A program made the translations under genes and the position numbers. The notes beneath the pieces are model-generated. The model saw only the letters and a program-made list of their open reading frames with translations. It ran no database searches and had not been told where the DNA came from. A DNA stretch of 55,137 nucleotides from the NCBI GenBank assembly GCA_043742705.1, contig JAYTXY010000056.1, forward strand, positions 1 to 55,137, given 5' to 3'. This document shows positions 18,717 to 53,779 of the stretch, piece by piece. This stretch comes from Bacteroidota bacterium. Lineage in GTDB: Bacteria; Bacteroidota; Bacteroidia; AKYH767-A; 2013-40CM-41-45. Within the stretch, counting starts at the first letter, position 1. The number at the start of each line of letters is the position of its first letter.

Positions 18717-19709
18717 TTAGATTTTCGCCAACGAACTTTTCAAATGATTAATTACCTCAATCTCCATCGCATCCACGTTATTTTTATCTGCGAGGTAACA
18801 GGAAACCCAATCAGTCAGATTAATTAAATAGATACTGCGTTCAAGCTGCGAATTTCCTTTCGACCAAAGTTCATAAACATGAGGAGTGTATTTCGGAAAA
18901 ACTTCTTTGCAGATTTCAATGCGTGTCTGCGTACGTGAGTAATCTGTTTTATTACGAAGAAGAATTACTCCCAGATCACTCCATCCTCCTGCCCAACCCA
19001 CCAGTTCATTGTGGTTCATTTCAGGAATGATGTGATGCCAGCACAATACCTTGCTGTTTTCATTCAACTGCTGGCGAAACCGCGTTGCTACACCGTTGTA
19101 GCCATCGACAGCATAGATGACAGGAATTTTCTTGTACAGGAATTCAGCCATCTTCATCGCTTCTTCTTTGATGTTTTTTTCTTCCGAAGTGATTAATTCA
19201 ACAGCGCCTTTCAATTGCGCTTTAAACGAATCACCAATCAGTTTCATTCCGTGAAGAACAAAAAATAATTGTGTTAATGAATATCCGAGGCAGGCGCGTG
19301 GAGGCATTCCACCGGGAATAGTGATCAGTCCGCAGTTGTTGGCTTTTGCCATTTCGGAAATTTTTCCTCCGGAAGAAATGCAGACAATCGTTGCTTTCGC
19401 CTTCAAAGCAGCCTCCATGGCCTGGATGGTTTCTTCCGTGTTTCCTGAATAAGAGGAAACAATCACCAGCGTATTTTCATTTACAAAAGCCGGAAGAAAA
19501 TAATCTTTGTTGACAAGAATCGGAACCGAACATTCCTGCGCTACAATTTCTGAAACGATTGTGCCGCCAATGCCGGAACCGCCGAGTCCTGTAATCATAA
19601 CATTGCGGATTGCGGATTGCGGATTTTGGATCGTAGATTTTCCTCCGATTTCAATCGCTTCGCGAAGTTGATTGGGAAAATTTTGCACTAATTGTTTCAT
19701 CTCACTCAT
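18717..19709 (-). CDS. Bifunctional phosphoglucose/phosphomannose isomerase (SIS domain family)
   Basis: 330 aa. Contains [11 protein letters not shown] and SYSGNTEET (SIS motifs) and a C-terminal PGI/PMI-type domain. Confidence 0.85.
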
Positions 19710-19789
19710 GTAAAAAGATTTGTTTTAATTTCAGGGGGCAAAGATAAGAATTATGAGGGGTTTAACAGCAGGTCAACTATCTCAAATCT

Positions 19790-19819
19790 ATCCGCAATTT
19801 TAGATTCGAAATCCGCAAT
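19790..19819. repeat. atccgcaat x2 direct repeat in the PGI-PMI/lysS divergent region
   Basis: Copies lie at 19790-19798 and 19811-19819. They are complementary to (attgcgg)x3 at 19602-19622 inside the PGI/PMI CDS and closely resemble the right arm of the 32552-32625 hairpin. Confidence 0.7.
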
Positions 19820-19826
19820 CTCTGTA

Positions 19827-21434: not shown

Positions 21435-22559
21435 TCACAATCTCTGCAACCACCTTGCAAAGAAAACATCATACACAAAATATTTTCCATCTTCCTGCAC
21501 AATCATTTCCCTTTCAAGCAATGCTTTGAGTGCCGTTCTTACAGAGCTGTTCGCCCCCAATTTATATTTGTGAATAAAGTCAGCTCCGCTGGGAGCTTTT
21601 ACTCCGTCTTCCTTTGCAACAGCCACTAAAAGATTCCATTGCTGCTGTGCAAGCAATGAGCGATAGTTAAAAAATCCTGCTTCGCGTTCTTTGATGATTT
21701 CGTAAAGCATTTCCCTGACCATCTCTGTTGTAAGGCTTTTTTCGTGACGGTAATACAACTTGTTGCAGACAGATTGAACGTAAAAAGTTACCGTTCTTGT
21801 CCAGTCTAATATGTACTGAATGTCTTCATCAGAAATTTTCTTCTCTCCTCTTTTGAAATGCATTTTAATAAAAGAAGAATAAACAGTGGCATTGATTTTA
21901 TTCAGCTCCATCAAATCCGTGCTTTGATAAAACGGACGCTTTGAATCAGTAAACATTTCCATCAACAGATGTTTCTGGCTCCCGGAAAAAATAAAAGAAA
22001 CATTCGGCAAAAACTGAATCTTTGAACGCAACAATGCTTCTGTATTTCTTTCAGGATAATCCAGCACCTGCTGGAATTCATCAATGGCAATAACTATTTT
22101 TGTTTTTCTGGAACGTTCTTTCAGGTATTTGAATATTTCCTCAAGCGTATGAACAGCTTCCTTTTCTGAACCGATGTCTATGGATATTTCCGGCTCTCCT
22201 GTAAGCGTATCATACGTTATTTTCGGGCGGAGCAATGAAATAATTTTCGTTGCCTTTTGCATGAGCTGAATTGCTTTCGCATCCAGTTTGCCAAGCACAG
22301 CTCCTGCAAATGCATTTACAAATTCCTTCAGGTTATTGGTGGCCATAATGTCGAGGTAAATCACTGCCGTGCTTTTCTTTTTTGAAAGCAGGTGAAATAC
22401 ATGTTGTATCAAGCCTGTCTTACCGATCTTTCTCTGGGCAAATAGCGTGATGTTTCTTTTGTTTTCGATGGACTTAAGAAGGGCTTGCGTTTCTTTCTCA
22501 CGGTCACAGAAATATTCCGGGCGTTCATAGCCGATCAGGGAAAACGGGTTATCAATCAT
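21435..22559 (-). CDS. AAA+ ATP-binding protein (Arch_ATPase/ATPase_2 plus DUF234-type wHTH tail)
   Basis: 374 aa. Walker A is AQRKIGKTG and Walker B is VIAIDEFQ. The C-terminal ~80 aa resemble the DUF234 winged helix. Confidence 0.75.
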   Translation of the reverse strand: MIDNPFSLIGYERPEYFCDREKETQALLKSIENKRNITLFAQRKIGKTGLIQHVFHLLSKKKSTAVIYLDIMATNNLKEFVNAFAGAVLGKLDAKAIQLMQKATKIISLLRPKITYDTLTGEPEISIDIGSEKEAVHTLEEIFKYLKERSRKTKIVIAIDEFQQVLDYPERNTEALLRSKIQFLPNVSFIFSGSQKHLLMEMFTDSKRPFYQSTDLMELNKINATVYSSFIKMHFKRGEKKISDEDIQYILDWTRTVTFYVQSVCNKLYYRHEKSLTTEMVREMLYEIIKEREAGFFNYRSLLAQQQWNLLVAVAKEDGVKAPSGADFIHKYKLGANSSVRTALKALLEREMIVQEDGKYFVYDVFFARWLQRL

Positions 22560-22668: not shown

Positions 22669-24357
22669 ATGTTTTACAAATACAGGCATTTTTTCTATTC
22701 TTTCCTGGTCGGCTCTTTCTTCTTTTCATGCAGCACCTCACAACATCTTCCCATTACCGATGATCAGTTAAAAATCAGCCTGAAGAAACATATTTCCACA
22801 CTTGCTTCCGATGCTTTCGAAGGACGTGAAACAGGGACGAACGGGGAACGGCTTGCTTCAGATTACATCATCTCTCAATTCAAAGAGATCGGGTTGAAAC
22901 CCAAAGGTGAAAAAAAATTCATCCAGGAATTTCCGTTTACAGAAGGTGCTGAGATTGGTAAGAGCACACAGCTTTACATCAACGCACGATCTTACAAACT
23001 CGACACTGATTTTTTCCCGCTGCAATATTCCGGAAATGGAATCGTAACCAATTACATTACGCGTGTTGGTTTTGGAATTTACGCTCCCGCTCTCAAGCAC
23101 GATGACTACGATGGAAAAATGAATCTCAACAAGAGAATTTTCCTGATTGAATCATCTTCTCCGGATGGAAGCAATCCGCACGGTAAATATGGAGATTATG
23201 ATTTGGCACAGCGTGTTGAGTATGCAAAATCGCGCGGAGCTGCTGCTGTAATTTTCATCAACTCCGATACAACCGTTGATAATCCGAAAGCGGATTTCAT
23301 GCATAAGTTTAAAGCGTCAACCATTCCTGTTCTTTTTGTAACCGGTCATGCAGCAAAAATTCTGAAAGACAGTGTGGTGACGAATTGCACCGTTGGTGCA
23401 GAAATTCATAAGATTGAAAAGGTCGGACACAATGTGATCGGTTTTCTCAATAATCAATCAGCAACAACCATAGTTATTGGCGCGCATTACGATCATCTTG
23501 GATATGGCGGAGAAGGTTCCTTGTATCGCGGTGAACGGGCCATTCACAACGGTGCCGATGACAATGCAAGCGGGACAGCTGCGTTGATTGAAATTGCAAG
23601 ACGATTAAAAAGTTCCGGTGACAAAAAAAATAATTACCTCTTCATCGCTTTCAGTGGTGAGGAAAAAGGATTGCTTGGTTCAAATTATTTTGTGAAACAT
23701 CCGACCATTGATTTAAGGTCTGTCAATTACATGATCAACATGGACATGGTCGGACGACTTAAGCCGGAAGAAAAAGTTTTGCAAGTGCATGGAATCGGAA
23801 CTTCTCCATTATGGAAAACAGTAGTTGATACTTTGGCTGATGGTATTAAAATTAAAGCCTTAGAATCAGGTGTTGGCCCTTCTGATCATACTTCTTTCTA
23901 TCTCGAAAATATTCCTGTGCTTCATTTTTTCAGTGGCACACATTCCGATTATCACAAGCCAAGTGATGATGAAGCATTAATCAATTATGACGGAGAAATT
24001 TCCATCGTAAAAATAATTCTGAAAACGATTGATCGCTTGAATGATTCCGGGAGACTTGTATTCGTCAAAACAAAAGATGACAGCAATGATGACGCTCCGA
24101 AATTCAAAGTAACGCTGGGCGTAATTCCTGATTATGCATTTGAAGGAGAGGGCATGCGCATTGATGGCGTAAGTGACGGAAGACCTGCAGCAAAAGCGGG
24201 ATTACTGAAAGGTGATGTTGTTCTCCAATTAGGCGAACATAAAATAACCGACATGATGACGTACATGAAAGCGCTCGGTAAATTTTCAAAAGGAGGAACA
24301 ACGAAAGTGAAAGTGAAACGAGAGAATCAAGTACTAGAGAAAGATATTACATTTTAA
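22669..24357 (+). CDS. M28 family metallopeptidase with PA domain and C-terminal PDZ domain
   Basis: Lipoprotein-like signal (FFFSCS). Contains HYDHLGYG, GADDNASG, FSGEEKGLLGS, NMDMVG and PSDH. The C-terminal GMRIDGVSDGRPAAKAGLLKGDVVLQLG is a PDZ domain. Confidence 0.88.
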   Translation: MFYKYRHFFYSFLVGSFFFSCSTSQHLPITDDQLKISLKKHISTLASDAFEGRETGTNGERLASDYIISQFKEIGLKPKGEKKFIQEFPFTEGAEIGKSTQLYINARSYKLDTDFFPLQYSGNGIVTNYITRVGFGIYAPALKHDDYDGKMNLNKRIFLIESSSPDGSNPHGKYGDYDLAQRVEYAKSRGAAAVIFINSDTTVDNPKADFMHKFKASTIPVLFVTGHAAKILKDSVVTNCTVGAEIHKIEKVGHNVIGFLNNQSATTIVIGAHYDHLGYGGEGSLYRGERAIHNGADDNASGTAALIEIARRLKSSGDKKNNYLFIAFSGEEKGLLGSNYFVKHPTIDLRSVNYMINMDMVGRLKPEEKVLQVHGIGTSPLWKTVVDTLADGIKIKALESGVGPSDHTSFYLENIPVLHFFSGTHSDYHKPSDDEALINYDGEISIVKIILKTIDRLNDSGRLVFVKTKDDSNDDAPKFKVTLGVIPDYAFEGEGMRIDGVSDGRPAAKAGLLKGDVVLQLGEHKITDMMTYMKALGKFSKGGTTKVKVKRENQVLEKDITF

Positions 24358-24807
24358 CTTTTTTCACGCAAAGGCGCAAAGTGCGCAAAGTTTTTTACAA
24401 TGACAGAGAATGATATTGCTAAAATTTTAGTCGATATTTTTTTGAATGTGCATAAAAAATTGGGGCCCGGTTTGTTGGAGTCTGTTTATGAAGAAGTAAT
24501 TTGCTATGAATTGAAACAAGCGGAATTAAATTACCTTCGTCAACAAGGAATCCGGGTAATGTATGACGATGTTGCTATGGATTTAGGATTTAGAGCAGAC
24601 ATTATTGTCGAAAACAAAGTTATCATTGAAATAAAATCCATAGACACAATTGCTCCTGTTCATAACAAACAACTTCTCACTTACCTCAAACTTTCAAATA
24701 TTAAACTGGGATTGCTCGTCAACTTCAATGTTGAATTAATAAAGGATGGAATAAAGAGGCTCGTAAACAATCTATAACTCTTTGCGCCTTTGCGCGAAAT
24801 AAAAAAA
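24358..24807. mobile_element. Candidate inverted-repeat-bounded single-gene cassette (cargo: GxxExxY gene) filling the peptidase-gpsA gap
   Basis: cacgcaaaggcgcaaag (24365-24381) and ctttgcgcctttgcgcg (24780-24796) are reverse complements, 16/17. They are extended by a T-run (24359-24364) pairing with an A-run (24797-24807). The unit gcgcaaag is repeated 2-3 times per arm. Confidence 0.5.
24400..24777 (+). CDS. GxxExxY protein (PD-(D/E)XK nuclease superfamily mini-protein)
   Basis: 125 aa. Contains GPGLLESVYEEVICYEL (GxxExxY) and RADIIVENKVIIEIKS (D...ExK). It is bounded by gcgcaaag-unit inverted repeats. Confidence 0.85.
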   Translation: MTENDIAKILVDIFLNVHKKLGPGLLESVYEEVICYELKQAELNYLRQQGIRVMYDDVAMDLGFRADIIVENKVIIEIKSIDTIAPVHNKQLLTYLKLSNIKLGLLVNFNVELIKDGIKRLVNNL

Positions 24808-24810
24808 CAC

Positions 24811-25809
24811 ATGGCTAATAAACCAACCGTATCAGTTATTGGAAGCGGAAGCTGGGCAACTGCTATTGTGAAAATACTTTCCAACAACGTAAACAAAATA
24901 CATTGGTGGTTCCGGAATCCAGAGACGGTTGAGTTTGTAAAAAAATATCATCACAACCCGAATTACCTTAGTGATGTTGCCATTGACCTCAAAAAAGTTG
25001 TCGTGAACAACGATCTTACTCATTCTATCAAAGAAGCCGACATTGTCATTCTCGCTGTTCCTTCTGCCTTTTTAAAATCTGCTCTTGAAAAAATAAAGCC
25101 GGAAGACTTCGGAGGCAAAATAGTTTTTTCCGCTATCAAGGGAATTGTTCCTGACGACCTGATGATCATCGGTGATTTTATGCATCATCAATACAAAGTT
25201 CCGATCAATAAAATTGGTGTCATCACGGGACCTTGTCATGCAGAAGAAGTAGCGATGGAACGCTTGTCTTACCTCACGCTTTCCTGCACCGATACTGCAA
25301 ACGCTTCTCTCCTGGCAGGACTAATGAATTGTCGTTACATTAAAACAACTGTGAGTGATGACATTTACGGAACAGAATATTCTGCAGTCTTGAAAAACGT
25401 GATTGCCATTGCAAGCGGAATTTGTCATGGTGTAGGTTTTGGCGATAACTTCCAGGCTGTGCTTGTATCGAATGCCATCCAGGAAATAAAACGATTTGTG
25501 GATGCTGTGCATCCGATCAGCCGCGACATCAACGACTCTGCTTACCTCGGAGATTTATTGGTGACTGCATATTCTCAGTTCTCGCGAAACAGGATGTTCG
25601 GTACAATGATCGGTAAAGGATACTCTGTGAAATTCGCGCAGCTTGAAATGAACATGATTGCAGAAGGATATTACGCCACGAAATGTATTCATGAGATAAA
25701 CAAAAAATTTAAAATTCACATGCCGATTACTTCTGCTGTGTATCACGTGTTGTATGAAAAAATTTCCCCTCGTATTGAGACCAAACTTCTCGCTGATCAA
25801 TTAAGTTGA
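24811..25809 (+). CDS. gpsA: NAD(P)H-dependent glycerol-3-phosphate dehydrogenase
   Basis: The GSGSWATA Rossmann motif lies near ATG 24811, and the GpsA C-terminal domain (AEGYYATK) is present. The track start at 24790 lies inside the repeat arm. Confidence 0.9.
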   Translation: MANKPTVSVIGSGSWATAIVKILSNNVNKIHWWFRNPETVEFVKKYHHNPNYLSDVAIDLKKVVVNNDLTHSIKEADIVILAVPSAFLKSALEKIKPEDFGGKIVFSAIKGIVPDDLMIIGDFMHHQYKVPINKIGVITGPCHAEEVAMERLSYLTLSCTDTANASLLAGLMNCRYIKTTVSDDIYGTEYSAVLKNVIAIASGICHGVGFGDNFQAVLVSNAIQEIKRFVDAVHPISRDINDSAYLGDLLVTAYSQFSRNRMFGTMIGKGYSVKFAQLEMNMIAEGYYATKCIHEINKKFKIHMPITSAVYHVLYEKISPRIETKLLADQLS

Positions 25810-31720: not shown

Positions 31721-31844
31721 TTCTCCTGCATGGTCATGCAGGAGAAGGCTTCTCACAAAGTCATTCAGGAGGAAGCTATTCAAAAAGTGGTAGTCGTGTT
31801 AATGTTGATACAATTAATCAAAAAGATTCCTCCTGAATGACTTT
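31721..31844. repeat. Compound palindromic element of the gtcatKcaggag family, copy 1
   Basis: Hairpin ttctcctgcatg-gt-catgcaggagaa lies at 31721-31746. A perfect 18-bp inverted repeat follows: aaagtcattcaggaggaa (31757-31774) and ttcctcctgaatgacttt (31827-31844). Confidence 0.75.
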
Positions 31845-31885: not shown

Positions 31886-32551
31886 TCAATTTTCTGCAAT
31901 AGGTTCCTGCAAAGAAGTTTCTACGGATGAAGTCGGCTCAGCATCTTCCGCCTTCTTCTCATGCTTGTAAAACTTCTTCTGAAAAATTAAGAGCAGAGCA
32001 ACGCCTACTGTAATGGAAGAATCTGCTATGTTGAAGACTTCACGGAAAAACGAAAACTGTTGTCCGCCCCAAACAGGAGACCATTGCGGGAAATGCCCAT
32101 CAAACAACGGGAAGTAAAACATGTCCACTACTCTGCCATGAAATAAATGCGAGTAACCGCCTTCAGCGGGAAAAAGTGTTGCCACTCCTGCATTGCTCTC
32201 TGAAAACATCAGTCCATAAAAAATGCTGTCAATAATGTTTCCGATGGCGCCTGCAAACACAAGTGAAAAACAAACGATCAATCCTTTGTGAGCATTGGTT
32301 TTGATAAGCCGCAAAAGATACCAGCCAATTCCGAAAACCAGAACAATGCGGAAAATGCTGAGAAAAAGTTTTCCAAAACTTCCGCCAAACTCTAGGCCGA
32401 AAGCCATGCCGTTATTTTCCGTAAAGTGAATGAGAAACCAATTACCAAAAACATGAAACTCCTGGCCGAGGTACATGTGCGTCTTGATCCAGATTTTAAC
32501 GACCTGGTCAATGAGCAGAATCAAAAAAATAATAAGGAGTGATTTTCTCAA
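31886..32551 (-). CDS. lspA: Lipoprotein signal peptidase II
   Basis: Contains ENNGMAFGL and FNIADSSITVG motifs and 4 TM segments. The start appears to be TTG. The C-terminal ~30 aa tail is extra. Confidence 0.88.
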   Translation of the reverse strand: MRKSLLIIFLILLIDQVVKIWIKTHMYLGQEFHVFGNWFLIHFTENNGMAFGLEFGGSFGKLFLSIFRIVLVFGIGWYLLRLIKTNAHKGLIVCFSLVFAGAIGNIIDSIFYGLMFSESNAGVATLFPAEGGYSHLFHGRVVDMFYFPLFDGHFPQWSPVWGGQQFSFFREVFNIADSSITVGVALLLIFQKKFYKHEKKAEDAEPTSSVETSLQEPIAEN

Positions 32552-32625
32552 TTTCGAATTGCGGATTTTAAATTGCGGATTGAGGAGATATTAATTCGCA
32601 ATTTAAAATCCGAAATCCGCAATTG
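32552..32625. repeat. Intergenic hairpin with duplicated aattgcggat(ttt) units (lspA start / dksA-like stop)
   Basis: The left arm is cgaattgcggattttaaattgcggatt. The right arm is aattcgcaatttaaaatccgaaatccgcaatt. They are imperfect reverse complements, and the loop is gaggagatatt. Confidence 0.65.
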
Positions 32626-36986: not shown

Positions 36987-37064
36987 ATCTACGAATTACG
37001 AATTGATACTAATATACCTATCAAAGCGCATTCGTAAATTCCGACAAATTCGTAATTCGTAGAT
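36987..37064. repeat. Cargo-less hairpin element with perfect 18-bp tacgaat-unit arms, copy A
   Basis: atctacgaattacgaatt (36987-37004) and aattcgtaattcgtagat (37047-37064) are exact reverse complements. The 42-nt loop gatactaatatacc...gcattcgtaaattc is shared with copy B. Confidence 0.85.
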
Positions 37065-52423: not shown

Positions 52424-52441
52424 AAGTAGTATAAAAGATTG

Positions 52442-52495
52442 TTTATTGGTTCACTAGTTCATTGGTGGGAATACAAATGAACTAATGAACTAAAT
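52442..52495. repeat. Hairpin with tagttcattgg-type arms between the convergent DUF885 gene and pgk (likely a bidirectional terminator)
   Basis: tggttcactagttcattgg pairs with caaatgaactaatgaacta (about 16/19). The loop is tgggaata. Confidence 0.65.
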
Positions 52496-52497
52496 TA

Positions 52498-53709
52498 CTA
52501 CTCAACAATCGCTTTTACTCCGGGCAAAACTTTCCCTTCGAAATATTCCAGCAATGCTCCTCCACCGGTGGAAACATAACTTACTTTATCCGCCAATCCA
52601 AACTTGCTGATGGCAGCGGCAGAATCTCCTCCTCCTATTAGTGAGTAAGATCCTTTTGATGTTGCTTCCGCAATGGCTTCAGCCATTTTACGTGTTCCGT
52701 TTTCAAATTTTTTCATTTCAAAAACGCCCATCGGTCCGTTCCACAAAATAGTTTTCGAATTTTTTATCACATCACAAAATTCAGCAACGGCTTTTGGACC
52801 AAGATCCAATCCCATCCAGCCTGCTGGAATATTGTTGTTTTCTGCGACTGATGTGTTCGCTTCATTATCAAATTTATCTCCGATAATAGAATCAAACGGA
52901 AGAATAATTTCGCAATTTTTCTCCTCTGCTTTTTCTAACAGTTGTTTTGCGAGACCGAGTTTATCTTCCTCCACCAATGAATTTCCGACCTTCCCTCCCA
53001 ATGCTTTAAAGAAAGTGTAAGCCATTCCTCCGCCAATGATGATGTTGTCGGCTTTATCCAAAAGGTTTTCGATGATCAATATTTTATCAGACACTTTTGC
53101 TCCGCCCATTACAGCCGTGAACGGATGTTGTGCATTGTAAATAACCTTGTCGGCATTTGTCAATTCACTTGCCATGAGATAACCGAAGAACTTTTTTTCA
53201 GGAAAAAATTTTGCAATCACTGCCGTTGAAGCATGTGCACGATGAGCTGTTCCGAATGCATCATTCACATAAACGTCTCCATGAGCTGAAAGCTTTTTCG
53301 CAAACCCTTCGTCTCCTTTTTCTTCCTCTTTGTAAAAGCGGAGATTTTCCAATAACAAAACTTCTCCGGCTTTTAAATTGTGTGATAAATTAAATGCTTC
53401 GTCACTGATGCAGTCATTCGCAAACTTTACTTCGCGCCCAAGCAACTCTGCTGTTTTTTTAACGGTATGATTCAATGTGAATTTTTGAAAATCAACGGTA
53501 CCGTCTTCTTTCAATTTCTTCAACGGCCTTCCGAGATGGCTCATTAGTACCACACTTCCACCATCTTTTAGAATTTTGTTGATCGTTGGTAATGCACCGC
53601 GAATGCGGCTATCGTCTGTAACGTTGAATTGCTTATCAAGCGGAACGTTGAAGTCAACACGAACCAGGGCTCTGTGTCCCGAAAAATTATATTGATCGAT
53701 GGTTTTCAT
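52498..53709 (-). CDS. pgk: Phosphoglycerate kinase
   Basis: Contains [20 protein letters not shown] and [10 protein letters not shown] motifs. Confidence 0.95.
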
Positions 53710-53779
53710 TAGTTCATTGGTTTATTAGTTCATTGGTTCATTGGTAATCTTCACCAACGAACTAATGAACTATTGAACT
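53709..53779. repeat. Hairpin of the same tagttcattgg family between the aspS stop and the pgk start
   Basis: ttagttcattggtttattagttcattggttcattggt pairs with caccaacgaactaatgaactattgaact (about 17/20 in the core). The loop is aatctt. It abuts the pgk ATG. Confidence 0.65.

Follow-up and report, generated by a model that had tools for sequence, protein, structure and literature searches.

A GxxExxY nuclease-family gene bracketed by inverted CGCAAAG arrays between a peptidase gene and gpsA in a Bacteroidota genome

A gene of the GxxExxY (PF13366/TIGR04256) family, located between a peptidase gene and gpsA in a Bacteroidota bacterium, is enclosed by inverted arrays of a short tandem word. The locus lies in a stretch of 55,137 nt (contig JAYTXY010000056.1 of GenBank assembly GCA_043742705.1), which is referred to here as the window. 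The analysis shows that the cassette is an insertion; it also shows the bracket, arm words specific to clades of the protein, purifying selection on the open reading frame (ORF), a bias in orientation relative to the neighbouring genes and copies of the repeats without a gene. The locus exemplifies a widespread design, in which a nuclease gene sits inside its own repeat and which we did not find described in the literature; likewise, no paper linking GxxExxY/PF13366 with repeats was found. The explanation that we rank first, and to which we give an even chance of being right, is that of a nuclease gene residing inside its cognate hairpin repeats, in the manner of the Ssn/NTS or RAYT/REP systems, with a build like that of the intervening sequences (IVS) of 23S rRNA.

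The cassette and its protein

On the 5' side, the cassette is preceded by a gene for an M28 peptidase with PA and PDZ domains (22669-24357, + strand; Pfam Peptidase_M28, 1e-40, and PDZ_2), which ends with a TAA stop codon at 24355-24357. On the 3' side lies gpsA (24811-25809, + strand), encoding the NAD(P)H-dependent glycerol-3-phosphate dehydrogenase (NF000942, 270 bits; Pfam NAD_Gly3P_dh_N and NAD_Gly3P_dh_C). A 374-aa AAA ATPase of archaeal type (PF01637) is encoded just 5' of the peptidase gene, on the opposite strand (21435-22559, - strand). The cassette, read on the + strand throughout, has a T-run as its outer left end (24359-24364), followed by a left arm of three tandem units (24365-24390): CACGCAAAG at 24365-24373, GCGCAAAG at 24374-24381 and TGCGCAAAG at 24382-24390, the last of which has no partner on the right side. 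The cores of these units start 33, 25 and 16 nt 5' of the ATG, and these are the modal positions among 80 homologous loci. The GxxExxY (PDDEXK_3) gene itself occupies 24400-24777 and encodes 125 aa. The right arm (24780-24796) begins 2 nt past its stop codon and consists of two inverted units, CTTTGCGC (24780-24787) and CTTTGCGCG (24788-24796), after which AAATAAAAAAA (24797-24807) forms the outer right end and mirrors the left T-run.

The two arms match at 16 of 17 positions (CACGCAAAGGCGCAAAG at 24365-24381 against CTTTGCGCCTTTGCGCG at 24780-24796), the sole mismatch being A24366 opposite C24795. They are extended by a T-run/A-run pair, in which TTT at 24362-24364 pairs with the AAA of GAAA at 24797-24799. 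The T-run starts at 24359, 2 nt past the TAA, and the A-run extends to 24807, 3 nt before the gpsA ATG. The 15-mer CGCAAAGGCGCAAAG has exactly two occurrences in the 55-kb window, one per strand and both in the cassette arms, for an expectation from shuffles of 0.10. Aligned with each other, the two flanks of the gene score 37; among 400 control genes, the mean score is 17.7 and the 99th percentile 31. Moreover, arm-arm pairing is present in both the minimum-energy and the centroid RNA folds (z = -3.4), where a stem of 19-20 bp encloses the ORF. Given the arm match, the uniqueness of the 15-mer and a fold in which a stem closes the ORF, an initial sequence-only reading, which had proposed near-perfect arms with a T-run/A-run extension tightly fitted between the two host genes, described the locus correctly.

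Only 9 nt separate the left arm from the ATG in the window cassette, which leaves no space for a promoter. This suggests that the gene depends on read-through transcription, which would place both arms in one RNA. An intrinsic terminator was considered and rejected, since on either strand the stem is preceded by a T-run and followed by an A-run, and a U-tail after the stem is therefore absent. One weak 5-bp hairpin within the left arm looks incidental. A search of the window against Rfam detected no family, rRNA included, and gave one sub-threshold chance match at the locus.

The encoded protein matches TIGR04256 with 138.4 bits and PF13366 with 133 bits over its full length, above the curated cut-offs of 35 and 22 bits, respectively. 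It has the motif residues G24-L-L-E27-S-V-Y30 and the nuclease triad D67, E77 and K79; G24, E27, Y30, D67, E77 and K79 are invariant across 43 homologues. An AlphaFold2 model (pLDDT 94.5) shows a minimal PD-(D/E)XK core, for which LHK-Exo, Cas4 SSO0001 and lambda exonuclease are the nearest solved folds, all of them weak matches with a TM of about 0.5. In the two comparisons with homologues for which dS could be estimated, dN/dS was 0.06-0.11, and by this measure the ORF is under purifying selection. A PDB sequence search with the window protein retrieved no relative, PADLOC and PHROGs gave only faint Cas4-like matches and otherwise no defence system, and profile searches found neither a GIY-YIG match (cd10448 clade) nor a Y1_Tnp match in it. 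In a survey of PD-(D/E)XK proteins, the PF13366/TIGR04256 family is listed as of unknown function, with multiple transfers (PMC3424549). Among plasmid records, 6 of 72,556 matched the family, and phage records gave 0 matches. Near-identical GxxExxY genes (L036 and L037) were seen in two MAGs of one study, one belonging to Armatimonadota and the other to Cloacimonadota, which would be either a very recent transfer or a binning error.

The junction in relatives and the arm word

For comparison of the junction, 20 relative loci were fetched, and the peptidase gene lies directly 5' of gpsA in 13 of them. In distant genera, the peptidase-gpsA spacers are hairpin-free and measure 2, 28, 29 and 52 nt (L017, L019, L013 and L014). 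Without 24359-24807, the window would have a spacer of about 4 nt, which is like the 2-52 nt of the cassette-free relatives. Because the more distant relatives have so little between the two genes, the cassette is, on this comparison, an insertion of about 450 bp in a formerly very short spacer. No direct repeat that would represent a target-site duplication flanks 24359-24807, and a profile search of the window ORFs revealed no transposase gene inside or next to the cassette; on both grounds, a MITE or a transposon with terminal inverted repeats was rejected.

The same cassette, with CGCAAAG arms, is present at the junction in G008 and G030, both from another genus, with 70% and 74% amino-acid identity, respectively, and the G008 orthologue has three units in its right arm. 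Other junctions contain decayed forms. In G001, the first 81 codons of the ORF are gone and the arms are kept; in G015, most of the ORF is gone, the arms are again kept and both of them contain an identical novel CCCCATCGGGG segment. The junction of G011 has a gene-less hairpin with a polarity opposite to that of the cassette. In G003 (L001) and G002 (L004), of the same genus, the spacer contains no ORF; its array of TTGCCAACTGCC units is one-sided and is followed by GCGCGAAA. The latter looks like the leftover right tip of a CGCAAAG cassette, and these two spacers suggest that one junction may have been occupied in turn by different repeat families. The junction of G025 harbours a GxxExxY gene of just 47% identity with different arms. 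Phylogenetically, the window copy groups with that of G008 in a clade of moderate support (82/94) that includes other taxa, and the G025 copy belongs to a separate supported clade, which indicates that it was acquired independently. The divergence between the window and G008 cassettes is about that of host genes, and other GxxExxY genes adjoin gpsA in G019 and G009. As a separate observation, about 230 nt of extra sequence lie between the decayed cassette and gpsA in G001 (L003), bounded by two copies of CTTTGCGAGACA..GAAAAACCAACC, which duplicates the end of the right arm and the first gpsA codons. This extra segment may be the footprint of another insertion.

The exact window protein was found only at the same locus, in two other sequencing runs and with 100% identity over 1.2 kb. 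There was no second site for the identical gene and no empty allele in near-identical strains, and JGI metagenomes gave neither an empty nor an occupied allele of the junction. No movement of the cassette was seen, the locus being identical in the two other samples. The picture that these comparisons draw is one of long residence with occasional decay and replacement, rather than of frequent hopping.

The 80 closest homologues (50-77% identity) span about ten phyla, including Bacteroidota, Chlorobiota and Ignavibacteria, Acidobacteriota, Verrucomicrobiota, Planctomycetota, Chloroflexota and Latescibacterota. Most of them have three CGCAAAG-type units on each side of the ORF, with modal unit offsets of -33, -25 and -17 and of +2, +11 and +19, and the tip TTTTC(A/T)CGCAAAG is conserved on both arms of homologous cassettes in many phyla. 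Some homologues are positioned between two complete hairpins instead of inside one. Among the carriers of homologues are Flavobacterium collinsii CECT 7796 (L063), which is in culture, and Ferruginibacter sp. SUN002 (L033). Synonymous sites between the window ORF and its homologues are saturated (pS 0.73-0.91); that CGCAAAG-type units nevertheless recur argues for a constraint on the arm word.

The arms of one cassette are also matched to each other, with an arm-vs-arm score of 35.9 within a cassette versus 19.1 against the arms of other cassettes. Among 72 cassettes, the similarity of arm words rises with protein identity, from a cosine of 0.00 below 30% identity to 0.66 above 70% (Mantel r = 0.49, a value reached by none of 2000 permutations). 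Across the family as a whole, several words are in use (CGCAAAG, CACTAAG, CACATAG, CACGAAT, CACGGAT and others) and the frame CRCNNAK is kept. Tandem CRCNNAK words on both sides were found for 26 of 79 GxxExxY genes, for 1 of 1586 control genes and for none of the 14 four-helix-bundle (4HB, TIGR02436) genes of the source genome. The arms of the window gene had been described as unlike those of the scoAB 4HB cassette, and this holds at the level of the families: CRCNNAK words make up the arms of GxxExxY genes but not those of 4HB genes. Family- and clade-specific arm words fit a recognition by the cassette's own protein; alternatively, arm word and protein could co-vary through mere co-inheritance.

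Bracketed genes and gene-less hairpins

To score a bracket, the 150 nt upstream of a gene were aligned to the reverse complement of the 150 nt downstream, with 400 control genes as reference. The source genome contains 4 GxxExxY and 14 4HB genes, and flank complementarity exceeds the 95th percentile of the controls for 15 of these 18 genes and the 99th percentile for 11, each copy having an individual arm word. When 79 GxxExxY genes, sampled over the diversity of the family, were surveyed in 60 related genomes, 49 exceeded the 95th percentile and 45 the 99th, and the bracket is absent in about 40% of them. A census of inverted repeats in the source genome gave bimodal loop lengths: 133 hairpins have short loops, and the second peak, at 350-550 nt, corresponds largely to gene cassettes. 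The packaging common to the scoAB 4HB cassette and the GxxExxY gene, for which coincidence had been doubted from the outset, is indeed not coincidental, as the brackets of 15 of 18 genes in the source genome and 49 of 79 in relatives testify; the converse prediction, that most other copies in the genome would be free of inverted repeats, fails on the same 15 of 18. Of the common mobilisation or processing mechanism suggested at the same time, the non-coincidental packaging stands, but a single mechanism acting on any stem is not what the evidence points to, as the words are family- and clade-specific and track protein identity.

Other small genes of the source genome share this layout. Two Y1_Tnp genes (IS200-like, RAYT-like) and one DUF559 gene (Vsr-like) each lie within their own inverted hairpin repeats (C13:3841-4656, C186:1-741 and C185:15703-16214), which brings the number of unrelated small-gene families with a bracketed layout in this genome to at least five. 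A hairpin family with the sequence GTCATTCAGGAGGAATCyATTT, present in the window at 31757-31844 and in about 9 gene-less copies in the genome, also brackets a 100-aa GIY-YIG gene (C174:2037-2599); this gene and its repeat look like a pair of the Ssn/SRM type (cf. PMC11893778). A few host genes are seemingly bracketed by inverted arrays of reversed polarity (C145:9583-10113, which is ndk; C36:2106-2614; C30:2111-2520). The appearance arises because hairpins of one word family are present in the gaps on both sides of the gene, and this calls for caution with automated calls.

A loose CGCAAAG-array pattern gave 44 matches at 31 loci in the source genome, versus 11 in a shuffle. About 20 of the 31 loci look genuine, and the gene is present only at the window locus. 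The other loci are mostly hairpins of 60 nt whose loop brings the cassette tips together (...GTGAAA nnn TTTC...), with a polarity opposite to that of the cassette (for example C118:1152-1212, C24:41758-41819 and C98:3955-4017), as if both ends of a cassette had been joined. The simpler view that gene-less hairpins are cassettes minus their ORF was rejected for the source genome, since most have the opposite polarity; in relatives, both polarities were found. Of the 60 related genomes, 13 have a close ORF or a remnant of it, and 9 of these contain at least 10 CGCAAAG arrays, versus 9 of the 47 others (Fisher p = 0.001, an association confounded by phylogeny). Many CGCAAAG hairpins occur without a close intact ORF in the complete genomes G015, G003 and G025, and G059 and G054 have the ORF but, when the strict pattern is applied, hardly any arrays.

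Counted over all unit families, of which there are about a dozen, gene-less intergenic hairpins number more than 130 in the source genome, and they are found in all intergenic contexts, between divergent and convergent genes included. Several families share their word with a bracketed gene. TACGAAT is the arm word of the GxxExxY genes on contigs C119 and C188 and of about 25 further hairpins, and the words GTTCAAAG, GAAAGTG, ATTGAAGA and GTTCATTRGTT are each shared with particular 4HB genes. Within the window, a gene-less TACGAAT-unit hairpin lies at 36987-37064, and gene-less GTTCATTRGTT hairpins at 52428-52519 and 53705-53778; the arms of a 4HB gene at C203:14231-14700 use the same word. Inverted GATTGCGGATT arrays are located at 19608-19820 (156-nt loop, 5' of lysS) and 32549-32625, and the assembly, which is 89% complete, yielded no gene with this word.

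Known systems, competing explanations and meaning

The closest system in print is that of the Ssn proteins (Chenal et al. 2025, PMC11893778), small GIY-YIG nucleases that are flanked by, and cut, their own dispersed hairpin repeats. Both systems comprise a small single-domain nuclease gene with a hairpin repeat on either side, many gene-less copies of a cognate repeat dispersed in the genome and repeat variants that accompany protein variants. They differ in that Ssn is a GIY-YIG nuclease of the cd10448 clade, whereas the GxxExxY protein has a PD-(D/E)XK fold; in that Ssn repeats are single hairpin motifs, whereas inverted arrays of tandem 8-9-nt words are found here; and in that cutting of single-stranded DNA has been demonstrated for Ssn, whereas the GxxExxY protein described here is known from its sequence. 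Intergenic tandem 7-nt arrays (GGGAATC), often arranged as convergent inverted pairs and capable of forming stem-loops, have been described in Xanthomonas (Rehm et al. 2015, PMC4692102), but no gene family was named for those arrays.

In its construction, the cassette resembles the IVS of 23S rRNA known from Coxiella burnetii (helix 45) and Leptospira. The Coxiella IVS measures 428-444 nt, with a 28-bp stem cut by RNase III and three tandem GACAGAT heptamers before the ATG (PMC4990558). Similarly, the cassette is of about 430-450 nt, terminal inverted repeats form a long stem with the ORF in its loop, two or three tandem short repeats stand just 5' of the ATG, and decay of the ORF and a variable number of units are seen. 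In contrast to an IVS, it lies between two protein genes and not within a helix of 23S rRNA (the source assembly contains no LSU rRNA gene), it encodes a GxxExxY nuclease where the IVS ORF is the four-helix-bundle S23p protein, and its stem is a predicted substrate of RNase III, excision by this enzyme having been demonstrated for the IVS only.

REP/REPIN-RAYT systems likewise have a gene within its own inverted repeats, a clade-specific repeat sequence, many gene-less intergenic hairpins and residence in the chromosome. RAYT, however, is an HUH Y1 (IS200-like) enzyme and the window ORF is not, separate Y1_Tnp genes with their own repeats being present elsewhere in the genome. Moreover, unrelated families (GxxExxY, 4HB, GIY-YIG and DUF559) here each have their own repeats in one genome, and the gene copy itself is gained, lost or replaced at a junction. 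The Correia/NEMIS elements of Neisseria, which are MITEs, form transcribed stems that are cut by RNase III; they have defined terminal inverted repeats, a TA duplication and no ORF. An integron gene cassette was rejected, as the repeats are on both sides of the ORF rather than in a single 3' attC and the neighbours are housekeeping genes instead of an integron integrase/attI platform. By analogy, the locus would function most like Ssn or RAYT, and it is built like an IVS.

In the explanation ranked first, the repeat would be a pair of inverted arrays in which units of 8-9 nt share the core CGCAAAG, with TTTTC...GAAAA as tips, and the gene would sit within one copy of it, being expressed via read-through from the upstream host gene. 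In analogy to Ssn/NTS and RAYT/REP, the GxxExxY protein would recognise the arrays in a sequence-specific manner and probably cut them, most likely when folded as a DNA hairpin. The same units would form the many gene-less hairpins in other intergenic gaps, in whose spreading the protein may have a role. In the read-through transcript, pairing of the arms would necessarily enclose the ORF in a stem of about 19-20 bp, an arrangement known from ORF-bearing 23S IVS, and this stem is a plausible substrate for RNase III, from which a processing of the RNA might follow.

A first alternative, possible but rather unlikely in our judgement, takes the arms to matter as RNA only: as in an IVS, RNase III would free a stem-capped mRNA and uncouple the flanking cistrons, and arm words would be common within a clade merely by descent. 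The size of about 430-450 nt, the ORF in a loop closed by a terminal stem and the three tandem units all match the RNase III-cut Coxiella IVS. Cassettes share the orientation of both neighbours in 59 cases and are opposite in 4 (p = 1e-13), with 15 and 1, respectively, in the source genome. The lack of promoter space between left arm and ATG, the pairing of the arms in both folds (z = -3.4), the complementarity kept between the arms of one cassette and the presence of rnc, which encodes RNase III, in the source genome also speak for it. However, the mismatches in the arms show no excess of G.U over A.C, either in cassettes (39 versus 49) or in gene-less hairpins between co-directional genes (26 versus 32). 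By this count, no sign of selection on the arms at the RNA level was seen, and the absence of a wobble bias fits pairing at the DNA level. In addition, the word is conserved despite saturated synonymous sites, which pairing alone would not require, hairpins with the same words occur also between divergent and convergent genes, and some homologues lie between two complete hairpins, not within one. We thus rank DNA-level recognition first, as there is no G.U excess and gene-less hairpins are present in all intergenic contexts. The RNA stem is a real consequence, which may or may not be important.

It is improbable that the gene and its arms form an autonomous mobile element of a new kind, that is, a selfish unit that would move or home through cuts made by its own nuclease at the arms or at empty target sites, and whose non-autonomous derivatives would be the gene-less hairpins. 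The patchy occupancy of the junction among relatives is what such an element would leave, as are the presence in G025 of a cassette from another clade at this junction, the other GxxExxY genes beside gpsA in G019 and G009, and the retention of arms in decayed copies, as in MITEs. Moreover, a Chlorobiota ORF is more similar to the window ORF (77% identity) than is the same-site copy of a sister genus (70%). On the other hand, the window and G008 copies share a clade (82/94, other taxa too) with a host-like divergence that fits long vertical residence, the locus is identical in two other samples and no target-site duplication was seen. Strand joining would be impossible for a PD-(D/E)XK nuclease alone, 4HB cassettes of the same design encode no nuclease, and plasmids and phages are almost devoid of the family. 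Finally, that the arrays are ordinary intergenic repeats of the host, in the loops of which small genes tend to land, is very improbable: the abundance of gene-less hairpins in intergenic gaps (over 130, from about a dozen unit families) is in line with it, as are host genes such as ndk that look bracketed where hairpins of one family occupy the gaps on either side. Against it, arm words track protein clades across genomes and phyla, G025 and G008 have ORFs of different clades and different arms at this junction, CRCNNAK arms go specifically with GxxExxY genes and the junction is hairpin-free in more distant relatives.

Several points count against the favoured explanation of a nuclease gene within its cognate repeats as well. 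The 4HB genes use the same packaging and yet are not nucleases, the GxxExxY family is nearly absent from plasmids and phages, and there is no target duplication. About 40% of the GxxExxY genes of relatives are unbracketed, arrays occur without a close intact ORF, and in some genomes the ORF comes with hardly any arrays by the strict pattern.

A broader generalisation, which we consider doubtful, is that GxxExxY proteins may constitute a large, so far unrecognised class of nucleases whose sequence specificity would be for tandem CRCNNAK words in DNA or RNA in folded form, tuned by clade, which together with their arrays would be self-propagating and whose landings in rRNA would have given rise to 23S IVS. 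If this were true, a function would be assigned to PF13366 and a set of new site-specific nucleases would become available. From the precedent of Ssn, nucleases of this sort are known to be able to influence natural transformation and to serve as useful tools (PMC11893778). Already if the proteins recognise the arrays that bracket their genes, the intergenic tandem-word hairpins of Bacteroidota would gain an origin, ORF-bearing intervening sequences of rRNA would become a special case of a general cassette design, and the very large PF13366/TIGR04256 family would gain a testable function.
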